Assembly (NCBI GenBank): GCA_001929475.1
Contig: LXFE01000586.1
Coordinates: 1 to 37,522, forward strand
DNA length: 37,522 nt
Origin: Neolecta irregularis DAH-3
Lineage: Eukaryota
Reading direction: 5' to 3'
Shown here: positions 1,320 through 36,900 of the stretch, in pieces
How positions within the stretch are numbered: position 1 is the first letter of the stretch
Layout: every line of letters starts with the position of its first letter
Program-made: the position numbers and the translations under genes
The notes under the pieces: generated by a model
The model's input: only the letters and a program-made list of their open reading frames with translations
The model's database searches: none
What the model was told of the DNA's origin: nothing

Positions 1320-4300
1320 ATGCTATCCGCCAAACAAAAAGAGAGACAAGTTCTGCCTACCAATGTTCGACCAAGTACTTCGGAGCCCAATTGAAGAATC
1401 CTGACTTTCTTAGGAAATTACAAATTAACTCTGAACCCCGATTTCAAAGCATTCGATTATGACGGAACTGTTGTCGTTACTCTTGATGTCAATGAGACTA
1501 CCAACACTATCAAATGCAACTCTACGGAAATTCAGATTCACAAAGTCAAGATTGAGCAGAATGGTCATACGTACGGCTTAACTCAATTGGTTCGATTCTG
1601 ATAGTATAGCCAAACTTCCAGCTCGATTACTTTTCTCGATGATGATCAGTCAGCCACATTCACCTTTGATGAAGCCCTCAAACCTGGCTGCGAAGCAAAA
1701 TTAACTATCAAATTCACGGGACAAGTATTCACATTGTTCATATGCATACGCGTTTTAACAATCCTTAGTTAAACGATAAGATGGCCGGTTTCTATCGATC
1801 AAGCTACATCGATAACGTCACTGGGGAGAAGAAATATCTCGCTACAACTCAAATGGAACCGACAGATTGTCGACGGGCATTGCCTTGTTTTGACGAACCT
1901 GCTCTGAAAGCGACCTTTGATGTATCTCTTATTTGTGATAAGAACCTTGTAGCACTTAGTAACATGGATGTCATTGAAGAAAAGGATTCTGAAATCGAAG
2001 GGAAGAAGATCACTACTTTCCGGACTACTCCGTTGATGAGTACATATGTATTGGCTTCAGTTAATAATGACTGACGACTTAGCTTCTGGCATTTATTGTT
2101 GGTGATCTCAAATATGTGGAAACCTTTACTTCTGGAGAGCATGGAAAACCAATTCCCGTTCGGGTTTATGCTACTGCAGGCTATGAAAAGCAATCTCGGT
2201 TTGCTCTTGATCTCGCTGCCAAGACTCTTGATTTCTTTTCTGAAATCTTCGGAATTGTATATCCTCTACCAAAATTGGATAACGTCGCAATTCCAGACTT
2301 CTCGTAACTCTCTAGAGATTGCTCGTGTGACTGTTTAGCGCTGGAGCCATGGAGAACTGGGGTTTAGTTACCTATCGAGTCGTTGATCTTCTTTATGATG
2401 AGGATAAAGCTTCTGCTGCCACTAAGCAGCGAGTGGCAGAGGTTGTTCAACATGAACTCGCCCATCAATGGTTCGGAAACCTTGTAACTATGGAGTTTTG
2501 GGACGGCCTTTGGCTGAACGAAGGATTTGCGACCTGGATGAGTTGGTTCAGTTGCAATAAGTTTTTTCCAGAGTGGCGGGTATGGGAGAGTTATGTGACA
2601 GATAACCTACAGCAAGCTTTGAGACTTGATGGTATGTGTTGTTGTGTATCAGGTTTTTACTTTACAGCACTGAGAAGTTCTCATCCCATACAGGCGGAAG
2701 TCTTTCGCGCAGACGAGATTAATCAGGCAGAGTCCTTGTGAATAAGCTCATTGCTTATTATTAGATTTTTGATGCGATCTCCTACTCCAAAGGATCATGC
2801 GCTATTCGAATGGTTTCCGTATATCTCGGCGAAGATGTCTTTCTTGCAGGTATCCGCAGATATCTCAAAAAACATGCATATGGAAATACCAAGACATCTG
2901 ATCTCTGGGATGCGCTTTCCTTGGAAAGCGGTAAGGATATCTCCAGAGTCATGAGTATCTGGACGATGAACGTTGGATTTCCAGTCATCACTGTCACTGA
3001 AGACTCAAACTCTATCAAACTTCGACAAACCCGATTCTTATCGACAGGAGATGTTAAAGAAGAAGATGACACAGTTCTATACTGGGTTCCTCTCGCAATG
3101 ATAAATAACGATACTTCAAGCCATCATATCGAGAGTTTCTCTGAGAAAGAAGTCACAATCCCTATATTAGACCTCGAATTCTACAAGTTGAATCTTGCTC
3201 ATAGCGGAATTTATCGAACCAATTATCCTCCAGAACGCCTCCAGAAGCTTGGGCAAGCTGGTAAGCGAGGCCTTTTGAATGCTGAAGATCGCGCTGGTCT
3301 CGTCGCTGATGCTGGGGCTCTATCAGCGAGTGGTCATTCGAACACTAGCTACTTTTTAAATCTCGTCTCCCAATGGACTGAGGAATCAGAATTCGTGTAC
3401 GTTGGTATCTAAACTTTTTCATGATATACTAGTGTTTGGGGAGAAATGCTCGCTCGAATTGGCGCAATTAAAGATGCGTGGGGTTTCCAATCTCCAGAGA
3501 TCGTTCGAGCACTAGAGAAACTGACAATTGCTCTGACTGGTCCGAAGGCCAAGTCTCTCGGATGGGAATTTTCAAAAGACGAAGACCATATCAGTGCACA
3601 ATTCAAAGCTCTACTGTTTGGTGTTTCTGGTATGGCAGGTGACCCGGAGATTGTCAAGGCTGCTCAGGATATGTTTGAAAAATTCGTTTCCGGCCAACAA
3701 TCTGCGATACATCCGAATATCAGAGGGTATTACTATCTCATCCTGTGGAATACTGACGTGATAGATCCGTGTATAGTATTGTTCTGAAGAATGGAGGGGA
3801 AAAGGAATGGAATGAAGTCCTTAATATCTACAAGAACCCTTCAAGCATCGATGAGAAAAACATAGCCCTCCGATCTTTGGGACAAACTCGAAAATTAGAA
3901 TTGATCAAGAAAACATTAGATCTTGCCTTGTCGGAAGATGTCCGGGAGCAAGATATCTATCTACCATTCCAAGGGTATCTTTTTGACCATCACAGTCTTT
4001 TGCACTAAACATCAAGTGTGCGATCCCATGCCAAGGGAATAAAACAACTTTGGGAGTTTGTACAGATCAAATGGGATACCATTGCTGGTCGACTTCCACC
4101 AGGCCTGTCCATGCTGTCGACAGTGGTTCAACTCTGTACTATAGGCTTCTGCAGCGATGACGCTATAAAAGACATCAAGGCATTTTTTTCCACTAAGAGT
4201 ACCAAGGGTTTCAATCAAGGGCTTCAGCAGAGTCTAGATAGTATCCAAGCGAAGGCCTCATGGGTTAAGCGAGACGGGGAGGACGTGCGAGCTTGGTTGC

Positions 4301-4326
4301 AGATGAAGGGCCACCTTGCCAACTGA
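1320..4326 (+). CDS. APE2: M1-family alanyl/puromycin-sensitive aminopeptidase (Ape2/Aap1-like), multi-exon
   Basis: ATG 1320 gives [18 protein letters not shown]. Motifs [42 protein letters not shown]...LWLNEGFA (HEXXH-X18-E) and [10 protein letters not shown] are present, followed by an ERAP1-like C-terminus. About 9 introns of 35-45 nt; stop at 4324-4326. Confidence 0.93.
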
Positions 4327-4618
4327 TCGGCTTGCTGGTCGAAACGGCGGGTATGCTACCAGAGATGAGTGGTAGAAATAGTAGAGGTAGTTTATGCAAA
4401 TGATACTTATTCCTGATTATCGGTAGCCGGTGCTAGACAAGGCTTGGTGTGGTATTTCTGGTGGAACGCCTAATTACGTATGAGCACAAGTCCAATCGAA
4501 CATTTGTCGCGTTCGGATAGGATTGCCAACTTTGACTCGGGCTTTGATAGTTGGCAATCTTATATGACATCACCATCTTATATTTGCTTGCAATTAACCT
4601 CCGACACTCAAGCAGGCC

Positions 4619-5368
4619 ATGAATGAACCCCTTGACTCGGGCATAAAAGCCCATGACATCCGTGCTTTGCGCTTCCCTTGTATGATCCAGCTGAGCGGCC
4701 TTTCATTAGAAATAATCATCCATGTTCTAGGATGTATCGACCAAGTCGCATCCCTCCTTAAACTGCGATTACTAAATCGATTCTTCAATTCGGTAGTCGT
4801 ATCAAACGAATCAGTCCTCGCCGCGGCAATAATCTCGCGTTTGCCAGATCACCATGTCTACGCGATGAAATGCATGAAGCCTCAGGATCCAATTCTCCGG
4901 TACAGATATACCAATCGTCTTGTGTCGATAACCAAATCTATTGAAACAATCATGTCGCATTCATTCATTGCAAAGTCTATGTATCCGGGCCTAGCAGAGA
5001 AACTTTACGCTGTTGGAGAGGAGCTTCTTCTGTTCTCAAAGTGCGAGGCACTTCCCCGCCGTATCAATGCCAGTCAAGATATAGACGATCCAGATGGCGA
5101 AATGTTTCGTCTGATATCCCACGCAATGAAGATTACGTTCACCACATTTAAAGATTATACTTGGACGTCTATGGACATAGCCACTATTTTCCTTGAGGGG
5201 CCGGAGCTTTGGGCTCGGATACTTGGCGGAGAAATTAATGAAGATGAGTTGAGGCAGGAACTAGGAAAGAGTAGGGGCAGTATTAGAGGAATCCGGGCGA
5301 TACGGTCCATATGGCCGTATCTTGGCTTCCAAACGGTGTTTGAAATAGTGGGAGTTGCAGCGGCCTAG
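4619..5368 (+). CDS. Intronless protein with an N-terminal F-box-like motif
   Basis: 249-aa ORF. LSGLSLEIIIHVLGCIDQVASLLKLRLLNRFFNSVV fits the F-box pattern (L..LP.EI...I...L....L..L..V.R.F). The start could instead be the ATG at 4682. Confidence 0.6.
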   Translation: MNEPLDSGIKAHDIRALRFPCMIQLSGLSLEIIIHVLGCIDQVASLLKLRLLNRFFNSVVVSNESVLAAAIISRLPDHHVYAMKCMKPQDPILRYRYTNRLVSITKSIETIMSHSFIAKSMYPGLAEKLYAVGEELLLFSKCEALPRRINASQDIDDPDGEMFRLISHAMKITFTTFKDYTWTSMDIATIFLEGPELWARILGGEINEDELRQELGKSRGSIRGIRAIRSIWPYLGFQTVFEIVGVAAA

Positions 5369-6184
5369 GTGTCAATGTATGGTTCATAATCTTCAAAAAA
5401 CTAAGTACTGAATTAGAATCCACATTGTGTAATTACAACGAGATCGGCTATCGAGGACATTCTCGTTGAATTAATGTCGGCTCTTATCGAGGGTGTTCTT
5501 GAATTCTGACTAATGGCTTCCACTCTGAAACTTTTGCCCGTGGTTTCATTCCAAGGCGTTATCATTTCTTTGGGAGAGGAGCCTTATATCATAATGAGGT
5601 CATCTGTTTGTAGCTTTAGAGAAAACATGGCCGATCGGACGTTTCGAGTGTCAAGTTGACCCCGAATATTTAACTGAGAGCTAAAAAAAAGAACCCAAGG
5701 TTACACCGCTCCCCATTTGCACCTAAGAACAACTTAGAATTTGTACGAGCAGGGGATGTGACGAATGGAACCACGCATCATAAAGCAGTAAGAAAAAAAT
5801 ACACCAGTGTGCATCTTTGAACAAAATCAGCATGGATCAGAGAGTTTCCATTTTAGATCGTTGTTTCTGGAATGACGCTGATAATGCCACGAGCGAGGAT
5901 AGTTGTAATCTCTGCAGCGTCATCGTTTATTAGGAAATCTCTGCTAATTTCACACCCGACTTGCAGATTCGGCTCGAGGCCTTGGAATTCACACCCAAAA
6001 TGGATATCCGGCAGGCGAGAATGAGGCTGAATCGAATTAAGTGTCGGGGTCCCGCAAGATAAGGAAGGAATGACTATTGCACCAATAAACCGACTTTTGC
6101 AATCGAGATGTATTGAGATTGAATCATAATGATTTTATTTACTCACTATCGTTCAGATTTACGATTCAAAGGCGCCTTGTCGGT

Positions 6185-7357
6185 CTAAATTTTACACTCC
6201 GTCATATCGAAGCACTTCGAGGCTTTTCTTTCAATGACCCCATTTTCAGTAACGATCGCGTCGATATATTCAGCAGGCGTAACATCGAATGAAGGATTCC
6301 ATGTTGCAATGCCTGGTGTAGCAATGTGAACAGTCTTAATTTCATTTGTATCAACTTTACCATCTTTTAATACCGGCCCGCGAAAGGTAACAACTTCTTC
6401 TCCTTTCCGTTCTTCTATCTCGATATCTTTTCCAGTGTCAGTCGTAAGATCAACCGTGGTAAGGGGAGCAGCAACGATGAATTTAATTCCATGATGTTTT
6501 GCAAGAATAGAAAGCTGATAAGTTCCAATTTTATTTGCGGTATCTCCGTTCTTGACAATTCGGTCTGCTCCTACGATAACGGCAGTAATATCATGTTGGC
6601 ATAACAATGAAGCAACCATAGAATCTGTAATAAGTGTACTCGGTATTCCTTCGTGTACCAGTTCATATGCGGTCAATCGTGAACCCTGGTTGTAGGGTCT
6701 AGTCTCGGTACAATATGCCCTAGACAATCGTCCGAGTTTGTGAAGTGAGCGAATAACCCCGAGAGCAGTACCATATCCAGCCGTAGCCAGCGACCTGTCC
6801 TTCAGCCGAGCTCTATTGCGAATCTTACCCTGTGTTACAATGAGTCAGTACTGCGATTTTCTTATCAGATGGTAGATCTTTTAGTAACCACTCTGCACCT
6901 CGGTCTCCAATGGCCGTATTGTCCCGAACATCATCCAATAGCATCTTTTCGGCAGCGCCTAAATATGCCTTTCGTTTCCCTTCAGATGTTTGGCAAACAA
7001 GATTCGTTAGTCGGCGTGCAGCTTCCGAGAGATTAACTGCCGTCGGCCTCGCCCGGACCAAATAATTTAATTTCTTTATAATAAACCTTTCAGTTTCCTC
7101 CTCTGATAGAGGTTCTAGAGTTGAGAGCTCGACAGCCAATGATAGAGCTGCTACAATTGCGATTGCAGGCGCGCCACGGACAGTCATGGACCGGATCGCA
7201 TGGAAGCCATCTTGAGCATTTAGGATCTATAGAATTAAGATTTCAGAGACACTTGGAGACATAAATCCACGTATACCGACTCATGCGGGAGTATGAGCTG
7301 ATCCAGGATACGGAGATGACCTGGGGTGTATTTTATTGCCTGCAATGAAGCGCACAT
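6185..7357 (-). CDS. MRI1: Methylthioribose-1-phosphate isomerase (methionine salvage), 3 exons
   Basis: [101 protein letters not shown]. Confidence 0.95.
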
Positions 7358-7769: not shown

Positions 7770-9886
7770 CTAACTTTCAGTCAGTCTTTGAAATTTCTCT
7801 TCTTCGGCATCATCCTCTCCAATTTCAAAAGAACTACGAATATCCTTTACATCGTCCAAATCAGCACGTTGTGGTATCAAGCTTGGTGAAAGGATCTGGC
7901 CCATCTTTCTCATCAATCCTGCTCCGCTACCCTTGATGTTTGCTAGGTGCGATGTAGGAGGCGCTTCCGACAATACAACAGTCGGAGAAGCTATCGGCGA
8001 ATCCGTTCTTGTCCATGAACGAGAAAAGAAACCCCTGGACGATGACAAAGATGTGCATATGTCCTCGGAAGAACTGTTCGGAGTTCCTGATTTCTGTCGG
8101 AATCGAGAGAACAAATTCGTTGCAGACTCTCGCAGATTGTCGGACTTGGGGCTCATAGCAGCTTCCGAGGAGTTAGCAGACCAAGTACCGTTTGATGCTT
8201 TTATATTGATATTTTTTAAGAAGGCTGCTTTGGAACGGATCGTATTGAGAGAGGTGCGGAAACCATGCTCTTCGTTGCTCTGGTATGGTTTAAATGAAGA
8301 GCGTATGATATCTAGCAACGCTTTGGACCCAGACAATCGGTAATCTCGAAGAATATAAGATTTCGCAAGAATGGGGCCAATATCGGATAATGGGTAGCAT
8401 TGAAGCATTTTCACGATTTCGGCGAAATTGAGTTGCAGAAGGTCATCTCGAATACATCTATACTCCATCAGAATTCAACTTGCAGAAAGAAGCAAAACAG
8501 CAGCATTGCACAGCAATAATCGTGGAGAAAATGAAATCCCCCGCTTTGGACTTTCATTGAATCAACATTAGTCATGGTTTGCCGAAATATATCGTAATCC
8601 GCAAATACTGAATCCCATATTCTTATCACACTAGGTAAAGAAAATTCCTGGCAGATCATGCATGTAAACCAGCGCAATGCAAAGTATGTTGGATGCACTT
8701 GATTTGAATCCTTTCATGTAAGCGTCTTCAAGATCAAAAATATACTAAGTGATCGGACAATTCTGGATCAACTGTCTTCATATGTTCCATAAATCTCCCC
8801 ACAATCGCGCCAATTCCTTGATCCTCGTCGAAATCGGAAGTTCTGATAAAAACTTCTCTGATTTCGGACATCACACTGCTGAAACACCAAAAAGTATCTG
8901 GTTCGGCACCAACTTCCCCACTTTGAGCAAGAACCTTTCGTCAAATTAATTTTGGACGGCTCCTCACATAGTACAACGGACCAATAATTTCGTTCATGCC
9001 TTGACAATATCCAATTCCGGGATTTAGTTTTGCATAGAGAAACAAGATGCGCTCGACCACTTCCCAATGATAATCATCAATTTGAGGGTCGTCTACATCA
9101 GTTTTGCTTATTATTGATTTGGAAGAGGAATTTTGACGATAATCAGATCCAAAATTTCGATTAAGATGTTGTATTCTACGAAAGAGCGATCGTCTAGTAT
9201 TAATAGGTCTGACATCCAAAGGAGGAGAAGAAATCCTCGAGGATAGCGGCGAAGTGCTATGCCGTTCCCCTGAACTCGGGGCTTGTGAATCTGATACGGC
9301 AGAAGTATGGTTGTTTTTCATTTCAGGCTGACCGATTGAAAGTTGATCCATTGACAATCGGCCAAAGACATCATCCATGCTAGACCTGGATTCTTCCTCT
9401 AGCACATTGTATGTCGCAGTTAATACAGGTGATAGCGGACTTAGAGGATCTCGACGGACCAGCTGTTGGAAAAAGGCAATGTCGGGCAATGTTCTCTTTA
9501 TATCTTTATCAATTTGTTCCAGAGTGTTATTATCTTCAAAAAATATCCCCCATTTCGAGCTAGCAGAGGAATTAAGCGGGTGATCTTGTGGATCGCCGTC
9601 TGGATCTTGGAGAAGATCTCGTAGATAATCATAATACGCATCGCGCTTTGAAGTGAGCGTCGCATTCCATTGATCTTTCTCTAGAGGTATATATCCAAGT
9701 AACAACTTCCAAGTTAGAGGACGAAGATTATCATCTGGGATTCCTACAAAGCATCAGCCAGTATTTCTGGGCAAGGATCACCAGACCTCGTAGACTCAAT
9801 TCTCGAAGCTGCGATAAATCAACGATCACTGCCCCTGACGATCCCAGAAGCCGCCTCAGCTTCGATAATCGCTCTTTATAGTCCAT
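7770..9886 (-). CDS. TBC-domain Rab GTPase-activating protein (TBC1D13-like), 5 exons
   Basis: ATG 9886 gives MDYKERL...LRGIPDDNLRPLTWKLLLGY. IDKDIKRT (R finger), YCQGMNEI (Q finger), YFALRWFTCMICQEFSLPSVIRIWDSVF. Ser-rich C-terminal tail. Confidence 0.9.
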
Positions 9887-11204: not shown

Positions 11205-11961
11205 TCTGAGAATATCTCAACGAAACTCGACATATTCTGAAGAGCATTGGGTTCCCTAAGTTTGGTAGCCGACTACAACAATGATTCTTGACCTTTATTT
11301 ATTCAGTAAACTACTTGAACTCATTCTTGGCCATGATGGGATTAACAGTATATCAGTACACAAAATTCCTATCGTTATTCTTCAGTATCAATGTATGCAT
11401 CCCTCAGCTAGTTGCATGCCCGTGAATAACAACTAATGCAAATTCTTCTTCGGGAACCATCATGATTTCATGCTTCTTCGTCCGTAACCTTACCAACCTT
11501 AACCCATCCTGCATTACGGTCAGCCGAACTCTGATTTGTCTCATGCCCCTTCATCTATTCCCTTGGTTACATCTTGTGCAGAATCTAAAAACGCCCTAAA
11601 CATCGATGCATAAGTCTTAGATAGATCGTCGTCAAGGGTGGATCGTATGATTGCTCCTGAGGGATTCTCGATAACTAGAACACCATGGACCTGATGTTTC
11701 TGGGATATACGGGTTATCAAATCCTCAGGGGAAATCGGAGAGCCATTTGTTAAGGACTTTGTGGGTTAAGTTTGGCTACAGAGGTATATTGGTACCATTT
11801 TTTAGTTGGAAGAGGTTCGGTTGCTGATCTCATATGATCGGCCTGGTTACAAATCAATTTCATTCTAAAGCAACATATTTACAGATTTGAATGCCATTAT
11901 TTGTGTTACAAGCTGTAGGAACATAAATGGATGAGGGAACTCAAACGTCATTATGATACTT

Positions 11962-13646: not shown

Positions 13647-14179
13647 ATGGTATATATTTACTCCCTGACCAAAGAATGTAACTAGTACAGTCTGCAGCAA
13701 ACTCTCGAGGCATACAGACACTTCTCGAGGTGCTGCAAGTGATCTACTCGATTATTAATTAAGTAGGCGGAGAAAGAGGCCCAAAAGATTGTCCACAAGG
13801 CTCGCGAATGTACGATTACCTCTAGCACTTAGCAGAGTCTTGATGCAGTTGTATAGATCGAACACAGCGGCTGAAGGATGCACGCTCTGAAGCGGCCAAG
13901 GAAATTGAAGCCTACAAAAAGCAGAAGGACTTGGAGTTTCAGAATCACCAGAAACAAGTACGTCATGGTTATTTCACCCATGTTTTCATTCTCAGTTAAC
14001 CAGCCCAGTATGAGGGGAAAAAAGAGCAACTAGAAGCTGAAGCCCAAACAGAGATAAAGCAGAAACTAGATGAAATTAGAAGAAACGGAATAGAAGGACG
14101 CGCCAAAGTTGTTGACGAATTGTTGAAAGCAGTCGTCACTGCTGAAGCAAAGCCTCACAGGAACTTCAGGAGCGGATGA
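13647..14179 (+). CDS. VMA10: V-type ATPase subunit G, 5 coding exons (first is ATG only); absent from the ORF track
   Basis: ATG 13647-13649, intron 13650-13690, then SAANSRGIQTLLE|AEKEAQKIVHKARE|YRTQRLKDARSEAAKEIEAYK...VVDELLKAVVTAEAKPHRNFRSG*. Confidence 0.93.
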
Positions 14180-14681: not shown

Positions 14682-16715
14682 ATGACCATCCTGATTGATA
14701 ATCTTGAGCTCAGGAGACTTTACAGCTATGATGACATTACTCTAACCGGAGCTTTTGTATCTTTCCTCGCTGTGATTGCATTTTTACTTTCCTTCGGTTA
14801 TCTCAAAAATTCCAAAGAACGCGAATGTGTTCCTTATAGCGTTGATATCCCTTTGGAAAGTCTCGTGGAGTGGAAAGGAGAAATCCTTGATTCGCCAACT
14901 ATCAAAGTATCTTCGTTTGAACTAATTGTTCTAACTGTTGAGACTCTGCAAAAGGATGAGATCCAGTGTTATAATCCAGCAAATGGCATGCTTTTAAAGA
15001 CCTTAAAAGCACATTCGCTGGAAGATATCGATCTGCGCATTGAAAATGCTGGTGTCGCTCGTCAGCAATGGAGGAAAACTACGTTTGCTCAGCGAAGGCA
15101 AGTTCTTCGATCCATGTTAAAATTCGTTCTTGAAAATCAGGAGACAATTGCTCGTATTGCGTGTATAGACTCCGGGAAAACAATGTATGTCCAAGATATC
15201 TTAATACTACGAAAATTACAATTGACTTCCTCAGGCTAGATGCAGCGTTGGGGGAGATATTAACTATTGTTGAAAAGCTAAACTGGACGATAAAGCATGG
15301 TGAAGCTGCACTAAAACCAGAAAGGCGGCCTACTTCAATGATCATGATCTATAAACATGCAGAAGTCTGGTACGAACCTCTCGGCATAATAAGTGCGTTC
15401 GTCTCTTGGAATTATCCTGTATGTTATTTACCAGGAATTTAATCAAGCGCTAGTTTCACAATGTATTCGCTCCAATTATCACAGCCATTTTTGCTGGAAA
15501 TGCAGTTATCATCAAAGGTTCAGAGCAAACCGCATGGTCTTCTCGGTTTTTCACCAATATTGCTAAAAAGGCTCTCGAAGCGTGTGGACATTCCTCGGAG
15601 ATTGTTCAGGTTTTGGCCTTGTGAACTTACATGCTGATAATAGAACGTTATTGCTCTGCCAGAACAAGCATCCTACCTCTTGATGCATCCATCGATTAGA
15701 CATGTCACTTTTATTGGATCTCACGAGGTTGGTATTAAGGTTGCTAAACAAGCGGCGGAGATCCTTAGGCCCGTCACTATTGAGCTTGGAGGGAAAGATG
15801 CAGGTACTTAGGGTTGTCATTCGGCGCTGATTGATAAGCAATAATCCTCGAAGAGGTTCATGACATAAATGCCGTAACCGCTACATTAATGCGGGGGACT
15901 TTTCAATCCGCAGGACAAAATTGCGTTGGTATTGAAAGAATAATATGTGTCGGTAAAATCTACAATCAAGTGATCGATCTCGTAGATCCGCTCGTCAAGA
16001 ATCTTAGGGTTGGATACACTCTAGACGAAGAAGTGGATATGGGTGCTATGATAAATGATCGAACCTTTGATCATCTAGAAGAATTGATCAATGAAGCTGT
16101 AATGCAAGGCGCACGGTTAGTCTATGGAGGGTTGCGATTTCACCATCCGAAATACACGAAAGGGCATTACTTCATGCCAACTTTATTAGTCGATGTTACA
16201 ACTTCCATGCGGATTGCGAACGAAGAGGTCTTTGCGCCCGTTATGACCTTCATGAAAGCCTCCACTTTAGACGAAGCTATCGAAATTACAAATTCTAGCA
16301 AATATGGGCTTGGCGGATCTGTTTTTGGAAAGAACAACATGCACGTTGAACATGTAATCAGTTCTGTTGAAACTGGGATGATGTCTGCGAACGATTTCGC
16401 CTGCTATTATCGTAGCTTCCTCCCAACGCAGTGCTGATTCGCTTAGTGGCTCAACTTCCATTTGGAGGAACTAAAGGATCGGGCTACGGAAGATTCGGGG
16501 GAAATGAGGGCCTTCGTGCTGTTAGTAACTTGAAATCTGTCTGTACCGATATCACGAATCTTGTACAGACGAGGATTCCATCAGTTGTTCAGTACCCGAT
16601 TCGGGACCAAGATAAAGCTTGGTGTTTTCTTCAAGGATTATTAGAGGTCCTTTATGCGACAAATCTTCGGCAACGAGCACAGGGTTTGATGAGCCTTGCT
16701 CGAAACTCTGTTTAA
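14682..16715 (+). CDS. MSC7: Aldehyde dehydrogenase-like protein with N-terminal TM anchor (Msc7-like)
   Basis: N-terminal hydrophobic segment; IQCYNPANG, EPLGIISAFVSWNYP, FIGS, IELGGKD, FQSAGQNCVGIER (catalytic Cys), EEVFAPV, LPFGGTKGSGYGRFGG. Confidence 0.88.
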
Positions 16716-18245: not shown

Positions 18246-18887
18246 GATAAATGAAAACAGAATATCATTGATGCGGTAGGAATGGGGAGTTTTTATGCAG
18301 CTTCTTTGTGAAGAGAAACAACCAAGCGCTCAGAGCTAGCGTCACACGCTTCTTCGACGCTATATGTCATACATGCCATTTGCCGGTGAAGTCATCGTTT
18401 ACGATTTTCTCTTCAAAGGCTTTGCGTTAGCCTAAGGCAAGTATGACATGGATTTGTAGGGATGTGACGGTGAAATCGATTTTGGACTAATTATTCTAGG
18501 ACTAGGTAATTCCGGGTAGCGGACTTCAGCACGAATTTCTATTCCATTATTAAAACAGACAAGATGAAACGTCTCATTCATGAAACATAGTCCTGAACTA
18601 AAGGGAGAGGAATTTGTCCTTGATCCTTAAGACGGTATAGATTCGACTTTTTAGGTTAAGATAGCGGAGGAAACTGAAAATTTGTTATTTTATATGGCTT
18701 ATAAATAAGGCAATTCGGTTACAGTGTTTGCCGAAAACAAACTAATGATGAAACTTCACTTGACGGAATAAATAGCTCTGAGGATTATACCAGTTGAATA
18801 CCAGGAAAAGTGTTTGCTTTGAGAATATTGATTTTCTCCTGAGTAAGGCTTCAAGATATCATGATCGCAACGCTAACTCTAATCCTT

Positions 18888-19921
18888 TCAAACGTATTCA
18901 AAATATCCGTCCGAGATATATCCCGCCTTCCCTGTCAAGTAATTTCGGACGCTGCCTTCCAGATGATCCCAGATTTCTCATGAAGTCGAAGAATTACAGA
19001 GGTCTTCTCGACACTTGGTGAATTTCGCAACAGCTTCCGAAGAGAATGCTGCAAATAAAGGAGTGACTGCGCACATCGATTCTGACAAGATGAGCCGTTT
19101 CTCATGTCAATATGTCACAGGAAAATGGTACACGTGGTATTTTCCGGTTATCTGATGGCCTTTCTCTTCCTTGGTTTACTACAATGACGTGGCTCATACT
19201 TGTCTACAAGTAGTCCTCTATCTGCACATTTGTAGGACGGATGGATAATGCTCTATTCATGCCGCTAAGAATCAAAGAATTGTTTCCTCTTTTTCCTCTA
19301 TGTTTCCAGAATCCTAATACCTCAAAGGCTCTACAACTACAACCTGTGTGTAACAAGTACTTGCCAATCCAGATTACCGGCGGGGGTTCTGTACTAATTT
19401 CCGTGGCGAATAAGGCAGGCAACAATCTAGTCAAGAGATATGGACCAAATACATTAGGCGCCCACGTAACCTAGGTTGACCATTTTAAGGGAAGACGGAT
19501 CTAACTCTACTAATCTCTTTGATGCGAGAACAAGAACCCGTTATTAATGAAAACCTGGAGTGTTGTTTCCTTCTCAAAAAAGGTTTTTGGCAAAGACTTT
19601 CGTGCTATCAAAATCTGAAAGATCCTTAATGTCATCTGACGAATGATGCCCTTGACTGTGCACCGACGCATAATCGCAATAGCAGCATCTCCTTTTATGA
19701 GATCTCTCGATTTCATAAAAGACAGTGGCATTCTTCTTAAATAATCCCAAGCACAACTCATAGCTGATACCACGATTTCCTCCAGTAATGACTATGATCT
19801 GAGACTATTAGTCATTGAAAAGATGAAATTTAACGATTCTTTATCAGTTAAATCAGGGAGGGCATTCAACGTCCAGGTCGATTTGGAAGGGCGCGATAAC
19901 TACAAAGCAAGATGATAACAT
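18888..19921 (-). pseudogene. Decayed tandem paralog of the adjacent SDR
   Basis: Collinear fragments PSKSTWTLNALPDLTDK|IIVITGGNRGISYE, DLSDFDS, FINN, VTWAPNVFGPYLLTRLLP, VIWIG, VTPLFAAFSSEA, CREDL...*EIWDHLE. Several frameshifts, an in-frame TGA at 18978-18980 and internal deletions. Ends are approximate. Confidence 0.85.
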
Positions 19922-22022: not shown

Positions 22023-25000
22023 TCACAATGTATTCGAGGCCGTTGGTTGAGAATCTTCACTTTCCGCTGGAAGACTGAATCCCCACTCAAGTATCTTCCA
22101 CCTACTCTGTTCTGCAACCCAAGGTTTCATTTCACCCAGAACTGCAATACTTGCTTGTTCACTTTGGTCAATAAGAAACTTTTGAGCAGCTTCTTGAATA
22201 TCATTTGCGGTAACACCCAAAAGCCGCTCTCTTCTCCTGAAAGGTCAGCCATTTACCTCAGGAGTCATGCCTCTGCCTCATGTCGTATGTGATCCCATCA
22301 ACAAATTGAATCATTCCCTCCTGATTGACACTGATAGGGGCATCGATTTTCTGGAAAACACTTAGCTTGCTTTCCTCTAACTCCCGCTTCGTCCAATCTT
22401 TATGGATTGCCCATTTACCTGATTCCTTCATTATCGTTAAGCTATTTCTAGCATCTGGGTCGCGGTAGGAATAAAACCCCAAGATACCGCCTTGGCCACT
22501 ATAAGAGGCACCACCACCATACGCACCTCCCTTCTCGCGAATTTCGCGGTGCAGATGGCGGTGAGTTAAAAGATTTGAGAGAATCTGTAGTGAAGGACCC
22601 AAATGATGTGTATAAGGTACACCTCTAAGACATAGAGCTGTGTAATTTACAGAGAAAGGGAATGGAAAGAAAGCATTTTGGGACGGAACTGCTAGCGGTG
22701 CTGATGAAAGTGTAGTAGATAAGGAAGCTATTTGATTCGGGAACGATTTGAGGAATTTGGATAACTCAGCAGAGTTTGATTTTATAGACTCGTCAGCACA
22801 CGTAATCGCTGTTCGAACGGACGATTTCTGGAACACAATTCGAGATATTTCCTAACTGTCAAGCCAACTTTCCAAAAATAAAAGACACTTTTAATTTCGC
22901 GATTGTTTCCGAAAGATCATGCATTCCAGCCAACTGAGTCATAAATTTCATCTGTGTCATACCTCCTTGAACTTCGGTAGCCCTCTTCCATTAACTTGAA
23001 TCACGGATAGACATACGGCACCAGGGGTCAAACATGAACTCGCAAATGCTCGGGCAAATTTGTGGCCGCTTGCAGCAATATTATTAACAGCATCAGAGGC
23101 ATTTCCTCTGATCAAACTTTGTAGCTTTTCGACATTATCAAAATTCGTTTGAAAAAGGAGGATTTGTAGAAGGTTGAACATATGGTGAACATTATGATCT
23201 AGGCAGTGTCCAGAAATTGTTAATCCTTCCTCAATTTGATCGAGATCTACAAAGTTAATGGCTTTGGTGAGCAAGAGTACTTGAATGATTGGTAGCAACC
23301 AATGTTCCAACTCGTAATCCGCCGGTTTTCAATCTTATTTCACCCTCCAGTTCACCCATTGATCGCTCCTTCGTTCCAAGATTCGTAATACACTCTGCAA
23401 ATAAGGGTAGATATATCTTCAGATCATCGGGTATGTTTTTTAATGTATTGACAGCCCGAAAATAAGTAAGTCCATTCGTCCCAGTGACGCGCCACTGAAC
23501 ATCTATGTCTTCAATTTTTCCAAATTCAAGTTTCGTTTTCTCCTTAAATTTTTGGATATCCGTGACGTTTAGGGTAGGCAAGCAGTCAACAATCTCTTGC
23601 GCTTCTTGTTGTTCGAGTAATTCAACTCCCTGTTTACCAATTGCCGTTAGATCTTCGGAATTTAGCGACCCGATCTGCTTTGATAAACGTTCTTTCTCTT
23701 CCTGGACGATGGCATCAGTGAGGGATGAACTGGGTCTCATGGTAAAGATCAACTGCGACTGATTTTGAAGGAAATACTCCTCAATCAACCCTTCAAAATA
23801 TCCACCTTTTGCAACTTCCCTTTTGAAACTATCGAGAGTTTCGTTCCATGACAAAATTGAAAAAGGATCAACTTGGTTGAACCATCCGGGCAGGATGCTA
23901 TACATAATACCCATACCAAAATGTGCAGTTTTCTACAAAGTTAGAGATCACGCATGACAGCGAAACAAAACACACATGTTTTAATCCCAGCTCCAGTTGG
24001 TGTAACACTCCTTCAATTTTCTTCACCTCGAATCCCTTTTCCCTCACCTCTCGCAAAACCTCAAATATTTTCTCATGAACAGCAGTTTCGTTTCCCTCCT
24101 GGACGCCTTGAAGGCCAATTGAAAACACGGCCGTCTTGGTACTCGAATCATAGCCTGTGTTAGGTGACCAATCGCTTCCCAGGCCTGTATCGATGAGAGC
24201 TTGATACATCGGCGAGGAATGTCCATCAGTAAGAAGATGTGACAGGATTTTCAAAGAGAAAGTCTTAAAAGTATCCGTCGTATCGTTTGCGAGGAAAGAA
24301 AGGGAAATTTTGAGCTGCTTTTTGGGATCTGACACTGGAAAAAGTTAATCACCAATAGATATAGGGAAAAACTTGGATCAACTGGAAAAATGCTCTCGAC
24401 AGCTCTAGGCCCGTCAAATCTTTTGACTTCTTTCTGGGCAGGGATAGGATCGATTTGTGAAAAGTTTTTAATCTTAAGATTAGCAGCCTGCAGATGATCT
24501 TCAATCTCGAAATTTCCATAGGTCAAAACCTTCGAATTGCTTGGATGATAATATCTTTTATGGAAATCGACGAGGTTTTTCCAAGTTAATGTAGTAATAT
24601 ATTTCGGATCTCCTCCACTGTCATTTTCATAGATGGTATTTCTATACATGTTCTTTTGAAAGTCGACATAGAAGAGATACGAAGAGTCAGACTCGATATT
24701 AGTCTCAGCGAGGAATAACAGATACTTGTTGGCCTTTCATCTCGTTATAGACAACGCCTTTGAAGACGAGGGGTGTAGAAGTGTCTCTGAGTCAGGTCAG
24801 CTTGGATGAAGAGAGCACCTCTAGGATTTTCATGCTCAAGCCTCCAGCCCTCCTGCCGAAAATCCAGCTGCTTAAGATTTGGAAAAAACACAGAGTCTAG
24901 ATAAACATCCTGAAGGTTCGCATAGTCTACAGCATTCGTGGTTGCGAAGGGGTAAAAAGTGTGATCACTCGCTGCTCTTAGGATGTGTAGCAGAAGGCAG

Positions 25001-25400
25001 CACACCAGTCATAGCATTCATGAAATTTGCCAGTGACCGATTCAGCATTTTGAAGAAAGGATCTCGGACGGGATATTTCGTGCTTCCACATAGCGTTGTG
25101 TGTTCGAGGATATGGGGCAGACCAGTATGGTCATAGGGTGGGGTTTCGAAGCCTATTGCAAAGACATTGTTCGGGTCGTCTCTTGCAATATGCAGATGCT
25201 CAAGGCCTGTTTGGTCGTGGCGGAGATGGATTGCGTCTAGCTGTAGTTCCGGGATGTGTTTTGTCTTGAGCGTGAGCAAGGATTTGCGCGAGACAGAGTA
25301 CGCGGGCGACTGTATAGCCGTGCAGCGAGTCGCCGACGCTGGGCAAACTGCGGAAGCGGGTGGCAGTGGAGGTCAATCTGCGGAGAGGAAACACGGGCAT
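22023..25400 (-). CDS. CYM1: Mitochondrial presequence protease (M16C), multi-exon
   Basis: Presequence-like [55 protein letters not shown] (HXXEH); [41 protein letters not shown]. Confidence 0.95.
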
Positions 25401-25554
25401 GCCGAAGAAGGATTGTATATGGCGGGAGACCACGAGTCGTGCGGGTTCAGGGAAGGTGGGATCAGGGAAAAAAAGATCCGAGACTTGGCTTCCGCGACCA
25501 GATTCGGCCCTATTCCGCGCTTTGCCCGTTCGTTCTTGTTCAGACTCGAAATAT
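25401..25554. promoter_or_regulatory. Compact GC-rich bidirectional promoter between CYM1 and taxilin
   Basis: 154 bp separate the divergent start codons. Confidence 0.5.
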
Positions 25555-31488: not shown

Positions 31489-33425
31489 GAGCCATCGCCG
31501 TAAACAGATTCATCGGTTTTCTACTTTGCTTGCCGTATTCCAAGTCTGTTCCAACCTTTGCTTTGGCGATCACCCTATTTTCGAGAGGAACGTCAAGTGC
31601 GTTGAGTGTGTCGGTCATTTTGTTGGGCATGATTGGTAATAGCCATATTGCTGAAATTCTTATGGCTTCAACTGCGTGATAAATAATTGATTCTTTTAAC
31701 ATTGCATCAGTTTTTAATGTCCAAGGTTCAGTTTCTTGGAGATACTTATTTGCCTTGCTATGAGCTTCATTTTTAGGAGATGACTTACGGCCAGAAAAAT
31801 TCGAGAAGCTAGATAGATATATTGCGATATATCTCCTTCTTTCATTGCTTTTGGACACATCTTTGCTGCTTTGTTGATCACTGAGAGCAAATGTATACCT
31901 GAATTTCCGATCGGCGAGATTTTTCGTGTTCGCGCAAGCTCCAGTGAGGTGGGTATATTAAATGTCGTCGAGAATACTCTGCATATCAAGTTTCCGAACT
32001 TACCCATCAACTGTTTTCTGTTGGTCGTCAACATACTATCTGTCGAAAAATCTACCAGTTGATTATATTGTTGAATGACGGGACATGCCTGAATCTCGCC
32101 CAAGCTTTCCTGCCTCCATTAAATAATATCTCACAGCGTCAATATCGACATATTCAACCAGTTTCAATGGATCAACCACATTTCCTCTACTTTTCGACAT
32201 TTTCATGTTATTCATCATCCAGTGAGAGTGAGTCAAGATTTTCTTCGGAGGCTGCATTCCCAAGGCTAGCAAAAAGGCAGGCCAATGAATACAATGGAAT
32301 CTTCTCATCAGCTTCCTAAAGAGCAAAAAGATACCTCGTGATATCTTTGCCGACGACATGGATATCAGCTGGCCATTCGGTTATCCCTCCAGGATACCCC
32401 AGGCACGAAATATAATTTATTAATGCATCCAACCAAACGTAAATTGTATGCTCTTCATCTCCAGGAACCGGAATTCCCCAGCTTAATCGGCTTGTCGGGC
32501 GCGATATGCTTAGATCATCTAATCCAGAGCGTACGCTCTCGATTATCTCTTGGTATCTGCTGTCTGGGAGAACAAAGTTGGGGTTCTGGTCATAGAATTC
32601 AAGCAGTCTATCTTTCATTTTGGAAAGCTTGAAATGGTAATTTGGTTCTGACGTCCAATGAACTTGACTCCCTGATTCCCTTGAAAACTAAAAATTACAT
32701 TTTGAGCAAGGATAAAACATGCTGTTTGAGTGATGTTTGCCGTTGTGTCATGTCGTTCTTCGACTTGCACTTTGGGGTAGAATGTTTCGTCGGAAATCGA
32801 ATACCAGCCTTGATGGTTTGCTTTATATATATACCCCTTTTTGTAGAGTTCGTTCTAGATATGAGGAAATACAAGGAACTGGCGGGTACCCAGAAATGTT
32901 GCACGGAAGTTTTGTGACGGGAATCCGTTGTTCTATTGAAATGTTGACAATCTACATGGGCAAACTCGAGGAGATTCTGGGGTCACTTTTGTGATCGTAG
33001 AAGGACGGTACTTTGAACTTTTCTGAACCCTTGTCGCAAAATATTTTCGTGGGAATTCCGGCCGCAGTTGCTGCTTGATAGACCTGATGTCGGATCAATT
33101 GTGTTCATGTCCCATAGGTACTTTTAAACCATACTCGTCTGTTCCAGTCGACAGAATTGCTTTTCTTCCGTTCAGCCTTTGGAATCGAGCAATAACATCA
33201 GCTGTTATCAGAGAATATAGATGGCCTATATGAGGTTCTTATTGGTCAGAGTCGGCTATTTTGGGGTACCTTTCCTCCATTGACATAAAATATTGGAGTT
33301 GTTATATAAAATGGTTTTTGTTGTAAATCCGTGGAACTTGAACGCCTGCCAAGACATGACTTGCAAGTCCATGATCTTTTGGATAACAAGGGAGTGATTC
33401 TGGGAAAATTCCGGGAAACCAGCAT
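31469..33425 (-). CDS. MSM1: Mitochondrial methionyl-tRNA synthetase, multi-exon
   Basis: Presequence MLVSRNFPRITPLLSKR; ITTPIFYVNGEPHIGH (HIGH), TGTDEYGLK, GWYSISDE, DLSISRP, WGIPVP, IYVWLDALINY, GKDITRFH, KMSKSRGNVVDP. Confidence 0.95.
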
Positions 33426-33923
33426 TACGATGTTTTATTTTGACAAGGTATGGTGCGCAAAGAAAAATGTTTCCTGCAACACTAGCCATGGGTCACCTTT
33501 TTGCATCTCGACTTAATTTCTACACGAGGATTACTTTTTGCCGATCTACTGAAGGCGGATGAGCATGATTTCTTGGAGGCGACAAAAGGCAGTAGAACTG
33601 AGCATATTGAATGAAGATACCGTCCGCTTTATCTATCCGAGGTCATCACATTACAGTCTTGAATACAGATATCTTGGCGATACTCTCGAGATGACTCCAT
33701 GAACTAATTTCCTCCTCACTGGTCTAACAGGCTGTTGCTAACCTGGGCTGAGCACCCTCACAATCAAAATTCAAGCGTTTATTGGATACATATTCTTCAA
33801 TCTTTTCTTCGTCTGTTGATGTGCCTTGTACTTTTCGAATTGTTCGTGTAGCGATGCGTGTTTGATATGGCAGGCATTTTGCATATCGCCTTTCAAGCAA
33901 TTGCCACAAAACTTCCAGTCGAC

Positions 33924-36900
33924 ATGCCACTTGTACTTTCAAAGAATCCGGCTTTCAAGACCGTGACCGAGTTTGATACGATCTATGGGAACAAGATTAG
34001 TCAATATCGGAGCGAAAATACCGGGTTACAAATCGTAGTTGTTGATGTGGAGGGCCCAGTCATCTCATGCCATTCGGTACTTGCTACTGAGAGTATGTAC
34101 CTCATTCGCTTCAATTGGCTGATGCAGGCAGTTTCCGATGACTCTGGATGTCCACATACTCTTGAACATTTGGTATTCCTCGGCAGTACTAAATATCCGT
34201 ACAAGGGAATTCTCGATCTGCTTGCAAACCGGGCGTTTGCGCAAGGAACGAATGCTTGGACAGCAGTTGATCATACGGCATACCACATCAAAAGTGTCAG
34301 CGAGGACGGCTTTCTTCGGATACTGCCAATCTACCTCGACCACATTCTATTTCCAACTCTAGAAGAAAGCGCGTTTACCACAGAGGTGTACCATATGAAT
34401 GGTTCTGGCGAAGATGCTGGTGTTGTATTCTCAGAGATGCAGGGAAGAGAGAATACGAGTGTCTCTCTGATGGCCGCCGCGTATGCCGCTGTGTTTTAAA
34501 TTCTTATCCTAGAAATCAGCGGGCATTGTATCCTGAGGGAAATGGCTATCGGAGCCAAACAGGTGGCTTGATGGAAGCGCTTGGAAAGCTCGACAATGAG
34601 ACGATCCGGGCTTTCCATAAAAAGGCCTATGTTTCTCGAAACTTGTCTGTAATCGTGATTGGAAAGTTGGATCATTCGCAACTTTTACAAGCTGTGCAAC
34701 CTCTGGATGAAGAATTAGCAAAGCGGTTTCCTCTTGGAGAGAATTACAAGAGGTGCGTTTGTTCAAGCAGCCGCTTATAATAGACCTTGGGTTGATTCTG
34801 CACCCACCGAGGATCTCGCGACTTCAGTTTTAAGAACGGTCGAGTTCCCGGACAGGGATGAAAGCATGGGTGACGTAAGAATTGGATGGTTTGGACCATC
34901 GGTATGGGTGTGTACTCATTCTCGATCGACGCTTATTATTTAGGATATCCAGGAAATAGCCGCTATTGATATGTTGGGGGTTTATCTCTGCAATTCTCCG
35001 ATTGCTCCTCTCAGGAAGGCATTCATTGAGATTAGACAACCCCTTTGCACAGGTGATATCGAAAATAAAGTTGCTAACTCAAGGCATCTCACTCCATACT
35101 ACCGAACGACTCAAATCCGAGATCACTTGTCAATTCAAATCTGTACCTTTTGATATGATAGATTTAGTAGAGTCAAAGTTCTTTCAAGTCTTAAATGATA
35201 TTTCCATTGACCTAGTTCGTATGAAGATGTTGATTGAGAAACAGATATTGAAGGCAGGATCTCGTTTGAACCTAGCTAACTGTAGAATTACGATGCAGCT
35301 GAAGTTGATCCATACGCAGGATTCAACTATGCCATAATTACTGCATTCGTGTACGGTGATACAGAAGGAAAAGATCTCAAGAGATATCTCGAGGATCTCA
35401 AAGCGTTTGAACATCTTTTTTCGTGGACGGAGGAACAATGGGCCGGCTGCATTAACAAGTATGTCGCGTTTACCTGTCTGCTAACTCCCAGATGGCTTAT
35501 TGAAGCGCCGCATGTGGCGATTCTCGGAAAACCGTCAGCGGTTATGGCCGATCGGCTAGTGGAAGATAATGCCGCTCGTGTTAAAGACCGGGTTGAGCAA
35601 TTGGGAAAGCAAAAACTCGAACAACTTCAAAAGAAAGTAGACGATGCGCAAGCCCTGAACGAACGACCTGTTCCGGATAAAATACTTGAAGATTTCAAGA
35701 TCCCTGGTATTGACTCGATCCGGTTTGTTGACATTGAAACGGCAAGAGTGGGGCTCGCTAGACTTGACGGAATCTTGTATTTTCAATTCTGAATGATCTA
35801 ACCCCAGCGACAATTCAACTCAAAAAGCACTAGATTCTATGTCTAGTGGTCTGTGGATGCAACTGGACAGTATTGAAACCAATATTTAGAGCTGACCGCA
35901 GACATCAAATCGCAATTCTTCAATATCTCACTTCATTTGTCGACCGCGAATTTCACGCACAAGCAACGGCTTTACAGTTCTTTATTCCTGTATAATATAT
36001 TTGTAAATCCTGTGAAACGAAACGACGGCACGACGCTCGATTGGATGCAAGTCGTTGAGCAACTGGATCAGAATACAGTGAATTACAGTGCTTCCTTTGG
36101 CGTAGCCAATGGATTCAAAGATTTGATGACGATAAAGTTCAAGGTTGATGTATGCAGTTTTGCAACGAATTACTAATTTGAGAAAACCAAGTACAAGGAA
36201 GCGGTTGAATGGATGTACGATATTATCAAGGTAAATTTGACAGAGATATAATTAACCTGTAGGGAACGATTTTTGACCCTGCGAGGCATGCGCTTATCTG
36301 GGCAATCTAACGATGCAGAGTCGGTGTTACGTTGTCAAAAATGCTAAACGATTTACCCTCTCAAGCGCGAAACGGGAGCGGAATGAACTGGGCTCTGTAT
36401 CATCATTTGATCTTTGATGAAGAGTCTACAGCAAAAGCAGTAAATCTTGCGACTCTGGCCAAATTCCTCCCTCAAGTCGAAAAAGTCCTGCAGGAAAACC
36501 CAGCAGAGGTCATCCAGATGCTCGAGGGAATTCAACAACTAGGTATGTATTTGAAAGTTTATATTGACGTCAGTTTGCCGGCCGGAGAATCTTCGGGTTC
36601 ATATTGTTGGACCGGTGTTGTTCCAAGATCCTGTTGCCCCGTGGAATCGATTTTCACCATGTGCTACAGATATAACTCCAATCCGATACGCGCGCGATCT
36701 GCTCTCGCCGATTGGCCGCAATCCGTGTCGATACGCGACTATTCTGGCGCTTCCAAGCATTGAATCATGCTTCTCTATCCATTTTTCTCGGGGACCGCAG
36801 GACTACAACGACCCTGATCTTGCGCCGCTGCAGGTTTTGATTGAATATCTCAGTCTTCTCGAAGGAGAATTCTGGAAGAAGATTCGAGGTGCGGGGTTGG

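Follow-up and report, generated by a model that had tools for sequence, protein, structure and literature searches.

A local excess of putative GC-AG introns in a contig of Neolecta irregularis

GC-AG introns in fungi and algae

GC-AG introns account for 1.009% of annotated fungal introns (PMC7072748, Table 1), for 1.0-1.2% in some ascomycetes and for at most 3% in basidiomycetes (Rep 2006 and Misiek & Hoffmeister 2008, as cited in PMC4500085). The shares given in PMC3033335 reach 39.6% in Aureococcus anophagefferens, 22.2% in Micromonas pusilla and 7.7% in Chlorella sp.; the 5' end of U1 snRNA looks normal in these GC-AG-rich algae, and the cause is called unexplained by the authors of that report. 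Introns with A at +2 have been described as well, GA-AG introns occurring in Eurytemora affinis and Oikopleura dioica (PMC7072748).

The window analysed here is an entire contig of Neolecta irregularis DAH-3, 37,522 bases long. Our tally of its introns is 81, with 73 GT, 7 GC and 1 GA donors, so that GC-AG introns make up 8.6% (about 1 in 12); the total is approximate and may lie between about 75 and 90. They share with fungal U2-type GC-AG introns the GC donor, the AG acceptor, a normal branch site, stronger other donor positions and the property of being overlooked by gene predictors restricted to GT-AG. They differ in frequency, which is about 8 times the fungal mean of 1.009% and about 3 times the highest cited fungal figure, and in length, which is only 32-38 nt. 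The likeness to Aureococcus, Micromonas and Chlorella would be that of a lineage-specific GC-AG share far above 1-2%, although the algal figures are genome-wide whereas that of Neolecta comes from one contig. The algae also have 64-70% G+C (PMC3033335), whereas the assembly of this fungus has 44% (PMC5309816) and the contig 40-46% (2-kb windows). The very high genomic G+C of the GC-AG-rich algae is not found in Neolecta, and the excess is not accounted for by base composition. One junction in the contig resembles the GA-AG introns of Eurytemora and Oikopleura in having A at +2 with a normal AG acceptor; unlike in those two species, it is a single candidate case that could be an assembly error.

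Homology support for individual introns

Candidate introns (Table 1) were tested by scoring all GT/GC...AG intron sets of a local region against HMMs of homologues. The HMMs were built from 70 of the best 150 listed proteins, 43 of the best 120 and 45 of the best 120, Neolecta's own proteins being left out.

Table 1. Putative GC-AG introns and candidate GA-AG intron of the window. Scores and margins are in bits; GN means that GA and GG donors were also permitted.
Intron	Position	Strand	Length (nt)	Donor	Phase	Gene	GC vs best GT-only (isoforms)	Margin	Scores with GN donors	In-frame stop-free GT-only alternative
1	2727..2764	+	38	GCAGAG	0	M1 aminopeptidase (APE2-like)				2700-2764
2	22270-22237	-	34	GCATGA	2	presequence protease (CYM1-like), final intron	362.3 vs 315.1 (67)	+47.2	76.5 vs 31.2	22302-22227
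3	32722-32688	-	35	GCATGT	0	mitochondrial methionyl-tRNA synthetase (MetRS; MSM1-like)	265.8 vs 250.9 (33)	+14.9	85.5 vs 71.5; runner-up 75.7	32718-32672
4	32088-32052	-	37	GCATGT	1	MetRS	141.3 vs 134.0 and 132.0 (1257)	+7.3	35.7 vs 28.4	32079-32040; 32079-32052
5	35254-35285	+	32	GCAGGA	0	M16-family protease-like NEOLI_001494	138.2 vs 129.8 (3167)	+8.4	84.3, next 79.4	35264-35298
6	36286-36318	+	33	GCATGC	2	NEOLI_001494	159.1 vs 127.8 (917)	+31.3	63.4, next 55.4	36215-36318
7	11546-11509	-	38	GCATGA	0	Roadblock/LC7				11570-11509 (62 nt)
GA candidate	33274-33238	-	37	GAAAGG		MetRS

All seven GC intervals, read directly, start with GC (+1/+2) and finish with AG, and retention of any of them leads to a premature stop. 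Their removal restores an orthologue-colinear frame better than the alternatives, as judged by profile at five sites and by residue count or Pfam continuity at two. An earlier note on this DNA had listed introns 1 to 6, with NEOLI_001494 named SDD3-like. Its positions, strands and donor hexamers are correct and all six introns are supported by homology, while its count of six is an underestimate because intron 7 was absent from it. It had also held that nearby GT sites give a frameshift or a stop, which is not so: each site has at least one GT-only alternative that stays in frame and is free of stops, and it is homology, not frame, that rejects these alternatives.

At the five profile-scored sites the lead of the GC model over its best GT-only rival is +7.3 to +47.2 bits, and all GC alignments are gap-free. 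The widest margin is that of the CYM1-like gene; a PDB search with its last exon gave no match. In the MetRS gene, intron 4 has the smallest margin of the set and its removal brings back a conserved D-x-D-[YF]-S stretch. Intron 5 of NEOLI_001494, with a similarly modest margin, gives the spacing of the homologues, the GT model being one residue short, and carries a CTAAC branch site 6 nt upstream of the AG. Intron 6 follows a 23-nt micro-exon (36263-36285) that brings back a conserved F-D-x-x-R stretch; the interval contains no GT, readthrough meets a TAA, and the annotated splice scores 122.2 bits.

For the two remaining introns the evidence comes from spacing and domain continuity. Exon 2340-2630 of the APE2-like gene aligns end to end with residues 298-394 of the puromycin-sensitive aminopeptidase 8sw0_A and the exon from 2765 on begins at residue 415, while the Pfam M1 profile ends at position 132 and picks up at 153. 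Both breaks indicate that 20 residues are missing, and exactly 20 are added by the GC model, in which a 59-nt exon (2668-2726) precedes intron 1. When GN donors are permitted and both anchors retained there are 327 isoforms; 8 of them supply 20 residues, and none of these 8 is GT-only. PDB and Pfam searches with the 20-residue mini-exon gave no match. In the Roadblock/LC7 gene, reading through intron 7 meets a stop two codons on. Of the Pfam Robl_LC7 profile, positions 3-61 fall in the exon before it and 62-90 in the one that follows, so that coverage is contiguous; the in-frame GT alternative would cost 8 residues.

As a control, GA and GG donors were also permitted. At 23 of 24 GT junctions no other donor then scored above GT, and at the remaining one GT lost by 1.0 bit; GC remained best at all 5 HMM-tested GC junctions. 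Non-GT "bests" at 35073, 36245 and 37110 were false, coming from too few introns or too narrow bounds, and were resolved by fuller runs. The junction at 33274-33238 behaves differently, since none of its 6 GT/GC isoforms stays in frame. With all 16 donor dinucleotides (73 isoforms) GA is best at 98.6 bits, the next scoring 93.1, and only the GA site reproduces, with no gap, the N-x-x-P-H spacing seen in homologues. A GTACCC lying 5 nt downstream of the GA donor looks good as a donor but breaks the frame. The junction seems from these alignments to need a GA donor, the alternative being an assembly indel.

The in-frame GT sites raise the question of whether some or most GC sites are artefacts, either because transcripts use a nearby GT at the price of small indels or because there are T-to-C or indel errors in the assembly. 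GT-only solutions are found in NCBI models, the margin is only 7-8 bits at two sites (introns 4 and 5), and the GA junction could itself be an indel error. Against this, the GT alternatives remove residues from conserved stretches or add residues to them and require introns of 62-216 nt or odd acceptors, whereas the tested introns measure 31-43 nt; behind the micro-exon, at 36286, there is no GT whatever. The non-random donor context described below also argues against error, and seven independent T-to-C changes at +2 are implausible in a 199-fold assembly. We regard an artefactual origin as very improbable.

Several other GC calls were discarded. GC 6854-6830 in the MRI1-like gene was a false ab initio call for which GT 6828-6795 is the better solution, and GC 15668-15699 in the ALDH gene was another, the frame not needing it. 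For GC 13825-13856 in the V-ATPase G gene, GT 13810-13856 was preferred on reading by eye of the sequence, on donor quality and on what we take to be the family spacing; the GC site may nevertheless be an eighth GC intron. A signal-only scan of the coding strands gave 76 GT, 24 GC, 45 GA and 25 GG candidates scoring at least 0. These counts do not discriminate and, together with at least three false ab initio GC calls, indicate that sequence signals alone are unreliable.

Frequency, donor context and possible mechanism

Of the 81 introns tallied, 34 were tested by homology, in genes preselected because they had been flagged in the first reading of the sequence (a selection bias), and the other 47 come from an ab initio model or from reading by eye. 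The first ab initio gene finders were dropped because they overran intergenic DNA and picked wrong introns; a version limited by region, in which introns were recognised by a trained model, served for the tally only. Introns of the contig are 26-51 nt long (median about 36, most of them 31-44 nt). Rfam and tRNA scans of the contig gave no match.

Finding 7 GC-AG introns among about 81 has a binomial probability of 1.9e-5 against the 1.009% baseline and of 2e-5 to 6e-5 over baselines of 1.0-1.2%; against 3%, at least 7 of 81 has a probability of 0.011. The introns could accordingly be real and the genome-wide share an ordinary 1-3%, the contig being a chance cluster picked from very many windows. 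A probability of 0.011 carries some weight when a genome of 14.5 Mb (PMC5309816) offers a few hundred windows, one contig is a small sample in which such a count would turn up now and then at a true 3%, the intron total is only approximate, and the genes tested had been preselected. The low probabilities at 1.0-1.2% speak against chance, as do the spread of the GC introns over 5 different genes and the disturbance of the paralogue NEOLI_000842 at homologous junctions. A chance cluster is, on balance, unlikely. We privilege the reading, with a probability of about 0.72, that the seven are GC-AG spliceosomal introns of the ordinary (U2-type) mechanism that are unusually frequent in this contig. 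On the sequence evidence they would be spliced in vivo.

U12-type introns have donors of the ATCC kind. None of the seven donors listed in Table 1 has a likeness to this type, for which PMC3033335 gives the consensus ATATCC. A yTnAy motif is present 4-14 nt upstream of the AG in 7/7 GC introns, as in GT introns; for the introns of the contig in general the branch site is yTrAy, at 4-12 nt from the AG.

GC-AG introns usually compensate by stronger remaining donor positions, and the donors of the contig conform to this. G is found at -1 in 6/7 GC donors against 29/72 GT donors (p=0.027) and at +5 in 6/7 against 27/72 (p=0.019), and matches to the donor consensus average 4.43 for GC against 3.14 for GT (MWU p=0.0036). 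Exonic AG at -2/-1, reported by the earlier note for five of its six introns, is indeed present in 5/6, the exception being 32722. Its remark that GT donors are very degenerate also stands: GTTTTG occurs at 15610 and GTCTGG at 9786 (both ab initio only) and GTGCTC at 24818 (profile-tested), and GT donors as a whole are weakly conserved, with G at +5 in the proportion just given and T at +4 in 39/72. From this the note had proposed relaxed donor recognition in a tiny-intron system. Tiny introns, weak GT donors and one GA candidate agree with it, while the better-than-average context of the GC donors does not, suggesting rather that C at +2 is accepted only in donors that are otherwise strong.

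Such introns may be recognised as whole units, through their length, branch site and acceptor, in which case the donor would carry little information, and GT donors are indeed degenerate. C at +2 would cost one base pair with U1 snRNA and would be tolerated where the neighbours -1G, +3A and +5G pair well. This U1/U6 pairing logic we infer from established knowledge of 5' splice-site recognition. Alternatively, GC donors could be deliberately weak sites serving regulated splicing, in which retention is coupled to mRNA decay, rather than a by-product of loose recognition. GC donors have been linked with regulated splicing in other organisms, and retention of any of the seven introns introduces a premature stop. 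The affected genes, however, encode housekeeping enzymes with no obvious common regulation, and the positions flanking the GC donors are strong, not weak, making this explanation improbable.

Extended to the genome, the U2-type reading would mean that the major spliceosome of Neolecta accepts C, and sometimes A, at +2, with GC-AG at about 5-10% of its tiny introns, which would number tens of thousands, and some GA-AG introns beside them. That the excess holds across the genome is a tentative proposal to which we give slightly less than an even chance. The earlier note mentioned that atypical splice signals had been noted for Neolecta, which we could not trace in the text searched: the main text of the genome paper has 0 matches to "intron" or "splic" and one supplement has none, and the literature searched for Neolecta introns, splice sites or GC-AG yielded no statement on donor types.

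Public gene models

Neolecta holds a key position in the study of how fungal multicellularity arose and in reconstructions of intron evolution among the Ascomycota. Its assembly (14.5 Mb genome, 44% G+C, 199-fold) is accompanied by RNA-seq support, at the gene level, for 99.4% of genes (PMC5309816), and the annotated proteome is reused in comparative work (e.g. PMC7940399, PMC8476143). If 1 in 12 introns has a GC donor that the annotation could not use, many gene models would be wrong. Were the genome-wide reading true, Neolecta would be the first fungus of moderate G+C for which this is shown, and hundreds to thousands of public Neolecta proteins would be truncated or mis-spliced, affecting comparative studies. 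It would also offer a natural system of moderate G+C for asking how a spliceosome comes to admit C at +2, a question that the algal cases left open.

The two NCBI models checked, those of the CYM1-like gene and of NEOLI_001494, use 0 of 3 GC donors, a point against these introns in view of the gene-level RNA-seq support, and mis-model all 3 sites, so that the missed GC introns result in faulty proteins. Model P0272 (CYM1-like) runs on into the intron as far as a stop at 22261 and loses the final exon (about 68 residues). The NEOLI_001494 model lacks a 170-nt exon and a 23-nt exon, and leaves out all of 35070-35285. Its annotated paralogue NEOLI_000842 is disturbed at the homologous junctions.

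Gene content of the window and basis of the intron tests

Pfam matches on stop-to-stop frames reveal about 17 genes on both strands of the window, whose G+C content is 40-46%. They code for an M1 aminopeptidase (APE2-like), an IF-2B-family isomerase, a RabGAP, ATG5, a Roadblock/LC7 protein, a RING protein, V-ATPase G, an aldehyde dehydrogenase, short-chain dehydrogenases, RPL38, a presequence protease (CYM1-like), a taxilin, the DNA polymerase delta small subunit, the mitochondrial MetRS and the M16-family protease-like NEOLI_001494. Single-exon searches found two annotated proteins of the window, NEOLI_001494 (P0001, 923 aa) and "Mitochondrial presequence protease" (P0272, 939 aa). The 256-codon open frame at 4598-5368 (+) has neither a Pfam match nor a predicted intron, unlike most other genes of the contig, which are intron-rich. 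The region 18400-19900 (-) holds a weak short-chain dehydrogenase match (19577-19804) for which the gene finder gave no coherent model; the introns of this gene are left out of the census presented below.

All intron tests are based on protein homology and on the DNA sequence itself. Profile HMMs for three genes were built from homologues, Neolecta's own proteins being excluded: 70 of 150 listed proteins for NEOLI_001494 (those of 950-1110 aa), 43 of 120 for MetRS (those of 540-640 aa) and 45 of 120 for the CYM1-like gene (of those with 990-1065 aa, the first 45 in id order). At each site all GT/GC...AG intron sets that leave the frame open from one anchored exon to the other were enumerated, translated and scored against the profile; as a control, the enumeration was redone with GA and GG donors added. 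With these donors allowed GC remained best at 5/5 profile-tested sites, and at 23 of the 24 GT junctions no other donor outscored GT. GT was best at all eight junctions of the CYM1-like gene and all 11 of NEOLI_001494; among the five of MetRS it was best at three, exactly tied at one and beaten by GG at one. This single loss, by 1.0 bit, puts the noise of the method near 1 bit, compared with margins of 7-47 bits.

Genes and non-GT junctions of the window (scores in bits of the translated intron set; isoforms, number of intron sets compared)
Feature	Gene	Position	Strand	Score	Best rival	Isoforms
Gene (Pfam)	CYM1-like	22023-25400	-			
Gene (Pfam)	NEOLI_001494	33867-37404	+			
Gene (Pfam)	Roadblock/LC7		-			
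Gene (Pfam)	V-ATPase G		+			
Gene (Pfam)	mitochondrial MetRS		-			
GC-AG intron	APE2-like	2727-2764				
GC-AG intron	CYM1-like	22270-22237	-	362.3	315.1 (GT-only)	67
GC-AG intron	MetRS	32722-32688	-	265.8	250.9 (GT-only)	33
GC-AG intron	MetRS	32088-32052	-	141.3	134.0 (GT-only, 40-nt intron); 132.0 (GT-only, 28-nt)	1257
GC-AG intron	NEOLI_001494	35254-35285	+	138.2	129.8 (GT-only)	3167
GC-AG intron	NEOLI_001494	36286-36318	+	159.1	127.8 (GT-only); 122.2 (annotated splice)	917
GC-AG intron	Roadblock/LC7	11546-11509	-			
GA-AG intron or assembly indel	MetRS	33274-33238	-	98.6	93.1 (next of all 16 donor dinucleotides)	73
Third intron, GT (favoured)	V-ATPase G	13810-13856	+			
Third intron, GC	V-ATPase G	13825-13856	+			

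GC donors and other non-GT junctions

The earlier note had reported six GC-AG introns in the APE2-like, CYM1-like, MetRS and NEOLI_001494 genes. Their coordinates, strands and donor hexamers all match the sequence, with exonic AG at -2/-1 in five of the six. Its argument that nearby GT sites always lead to a frameshift or a stop does not hold: full enumeration shows that each site can be spliced with GT donors only and without a stop, and in-frame GT alternatives were picked at several of them by the first gene finder. Since such solutions exist everywhere, the choice of donor had to rest on homologues. The CYM1-like junction aligns residue for residue with 12 fungal homologues. In MetRS, the GT model at 32722-32688 loses four residues together with a conserved S-x-E-[ST]-G stretch, and only the GC model at 32088-32052 gives a gap-free D-x-D-[YF]-S. 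The GC model at 35254-35285 of NEOLI_001494 retains a spacing of five residues ahead of a conserved E and is similar to F-D-A-V-E of a paralogue. Further downstream in this gene a 23-nt micro-exon (36263-36285), coding for a conserved F-D-x-x-R stretch, has a 32-nt GT-AG intron before it and the 33-nt GC-AG intron after it; there is no GT between this micro-exon and the next exon, and read-through leads to TAA.

The APE2-like site was assessed by the spacing of its flanking exons. Over its full length, exon 2340-2630 aligns with residues 298-394 of the puromycin-sensitive aminopeptidase chain 8sw0_A and the alignment of the exon starting at 2765 begins at residue 415, while the Pfam M1 profile ends at position 132 and restarts at 153. 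The gap is of 20 residues, exactly what is supplied by a 59-nt exon between a GT intron (2632-2667) and the GC intron. Eight of 327 GN-donor isoforms keeping both anchors, that is isoforms with any donor starting with G, give 20 residues; none of those eight is GT-only.

The Roadblock/LC7 frame stops two codons after GCATGA at 11546. Removal of the 38 nt from there to 11509, which carry a CTGAC branch site, joins positions 3-61 of Pfam Robl_LC7 to positions 62-90. This intron is the seventh of the GC-AG class and was absent from the earlier list. The high GC-AG density is both confirmed and extended. At the first tested MetRS junction the reading frame is lost with every GT or GC intron. The GA isoform scores best, and it is the only one giving the gap-free homologue spacing from N to P-H of the class I signature region; a good-looking GTACCC 5 nt downstream of the GA donor breaks the frame. 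This junction can be read as a GA-AG intron or as an assembly indel. The third V-ATPase G intron has two in-frame solutions, a GT intron of 47 nt and a GC intron of 32 nt. We favour the GT intron because of its donor quality and of the family spacing, which we take to agree with it; if this choice is wrong, the GC solution is an eighth GC-AG intron. In two genes the first coding exon seems, on inspection by eye, to consist of just the start codon, with a GT intron directly after it: ATG|GTACCA in Roadblock (11796-11798) and ATG|GTATAT in V-ATPase G (13647-13649).

Frequency and context of the GC donors

An intron model trained on 38 introns (29 from profile walks and nine APE2-like, most of these ab initio) was run gene by gene, then partly hand-corrected. 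The resulting census holds 81 introns (80 tabulated plus the Roadblock first intron), with 73 GT, 7 GC and 1 GA donors. Homology tests cover 34 of them (26 GT, 7 GC, 1 GA); the other 47 come from the ab initio model or were placed by eye, one at the 3' end of NEOLI_001494 being doubtful. Introns are 26-51 nt long (median about 36), the 29 profile-tested ones falling in the narrow range of 31-43 nt, and have a branch motif yTrAy, sometimes CTTAT or CTCAT, 4-14 nt before the AG. The GC-AG share is 7/81, or 8.6% (95% interval 3.5-17%), in a census whose model penalised GC donors, and so may have missed some, and also made false GC calls.

Table 1 of PMC7072748, whose species table does not include Neolecta, gives a GC-AG mean of 1.009% of introns in annotated fungal genomes, and figures cited in PMC4500085 are 1.0-1.2% in some ascomycetes and up to 3% in basidiomycetes. 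The binomial probability of the excess is 1.9e-5 at 1.009%, 5.7e-5 at 1.2% and 0.011 at 3%. Higher shares are given in PMC3033335 for Aureococcus (39.6%), Micromonas pusilla (22.2%) and Chlorella (7.7%), all of very high G+C, where the abundance is described as unexplained; Neolecta, in contrast, has a moderate G+C of 44% (PMC5309816). The main text of this genome paper and one of its supplements do not mention introns or splicing, though its PDF supplements, outside the search, may carry intron statistics. Nothing on donor types in Neolecta came up in literature searches on its introns, splice sites or GC-AG.

GT donors are weak, with +3A in 51/72, +4T in 39/72, +5G in 27/72 and +6T in 41/72. 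Among GC donors -1G is found in 6/7 (29/72 for GT donors, p=0.027), +5G in 6/7 (p=0.019) and +3A in 7/7, and the mean number of consensus matches is 4.43 versus 3.14 for GT donors (p=0.0036). As the seven GC sites were picked by homology and not by donor positions, this context is independent support for them. Compensation at other donor positions is a known pattern of GC-AG introns, and the strong context found here is that pattern. The relaxed 5' splice-site recognition suggested earlier fairly describes the weak GT donors and may also fit the GA case, but a GC donor is accepted only where its context is strong. Mechanistically these are ordinary GC-AG introns; the unusual feature is their frequency in a moderate-G+C fungus with tiny introns. 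Extrapolation from this one contig suggests that the excess may extend across the whole genome.

Public gene models and a paralogue

The public annotation is mis-modelled at the three GC sites that could be checked. The NCBI model of NEOLI_001494 (homologues have about 1000-1060 aa) jumps from 35069 to 35286, omitting exon 35084-35253, which aligns with 12/12 homologues shown. It jumps again from 36214 to 36319, omitting 18 nt of exon and the micro-exon, and follows an incorrect frame around 36557-36670; there, a GT intron at 36543-36573 agrees with the homologues. In the NCBI CYM1 model translation runs on past the GC donor and stops within the GC-AG intron, and the last exon (22236-22026) is missing; our rebuilt model is of homologue-like length, 1007 aa.

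The closest relative of NEOLI_001494 is NEOLI_000842 (P0003), a paralogue of the same genome on another contig. Its annotated protein is disturbed in the stretch matching the 36231-36318 region, which contains the micro-exon, and precisely where the 35254 intron falls it carries an 11-residue insert with V first and K last. From the protein alone we infer that this insert is probably an in-frame 33-nt GT...AG intron left in the model. Such an unspliced GT intron would mean that the intron position is common to the paralogues and that the donor varies between T and C.
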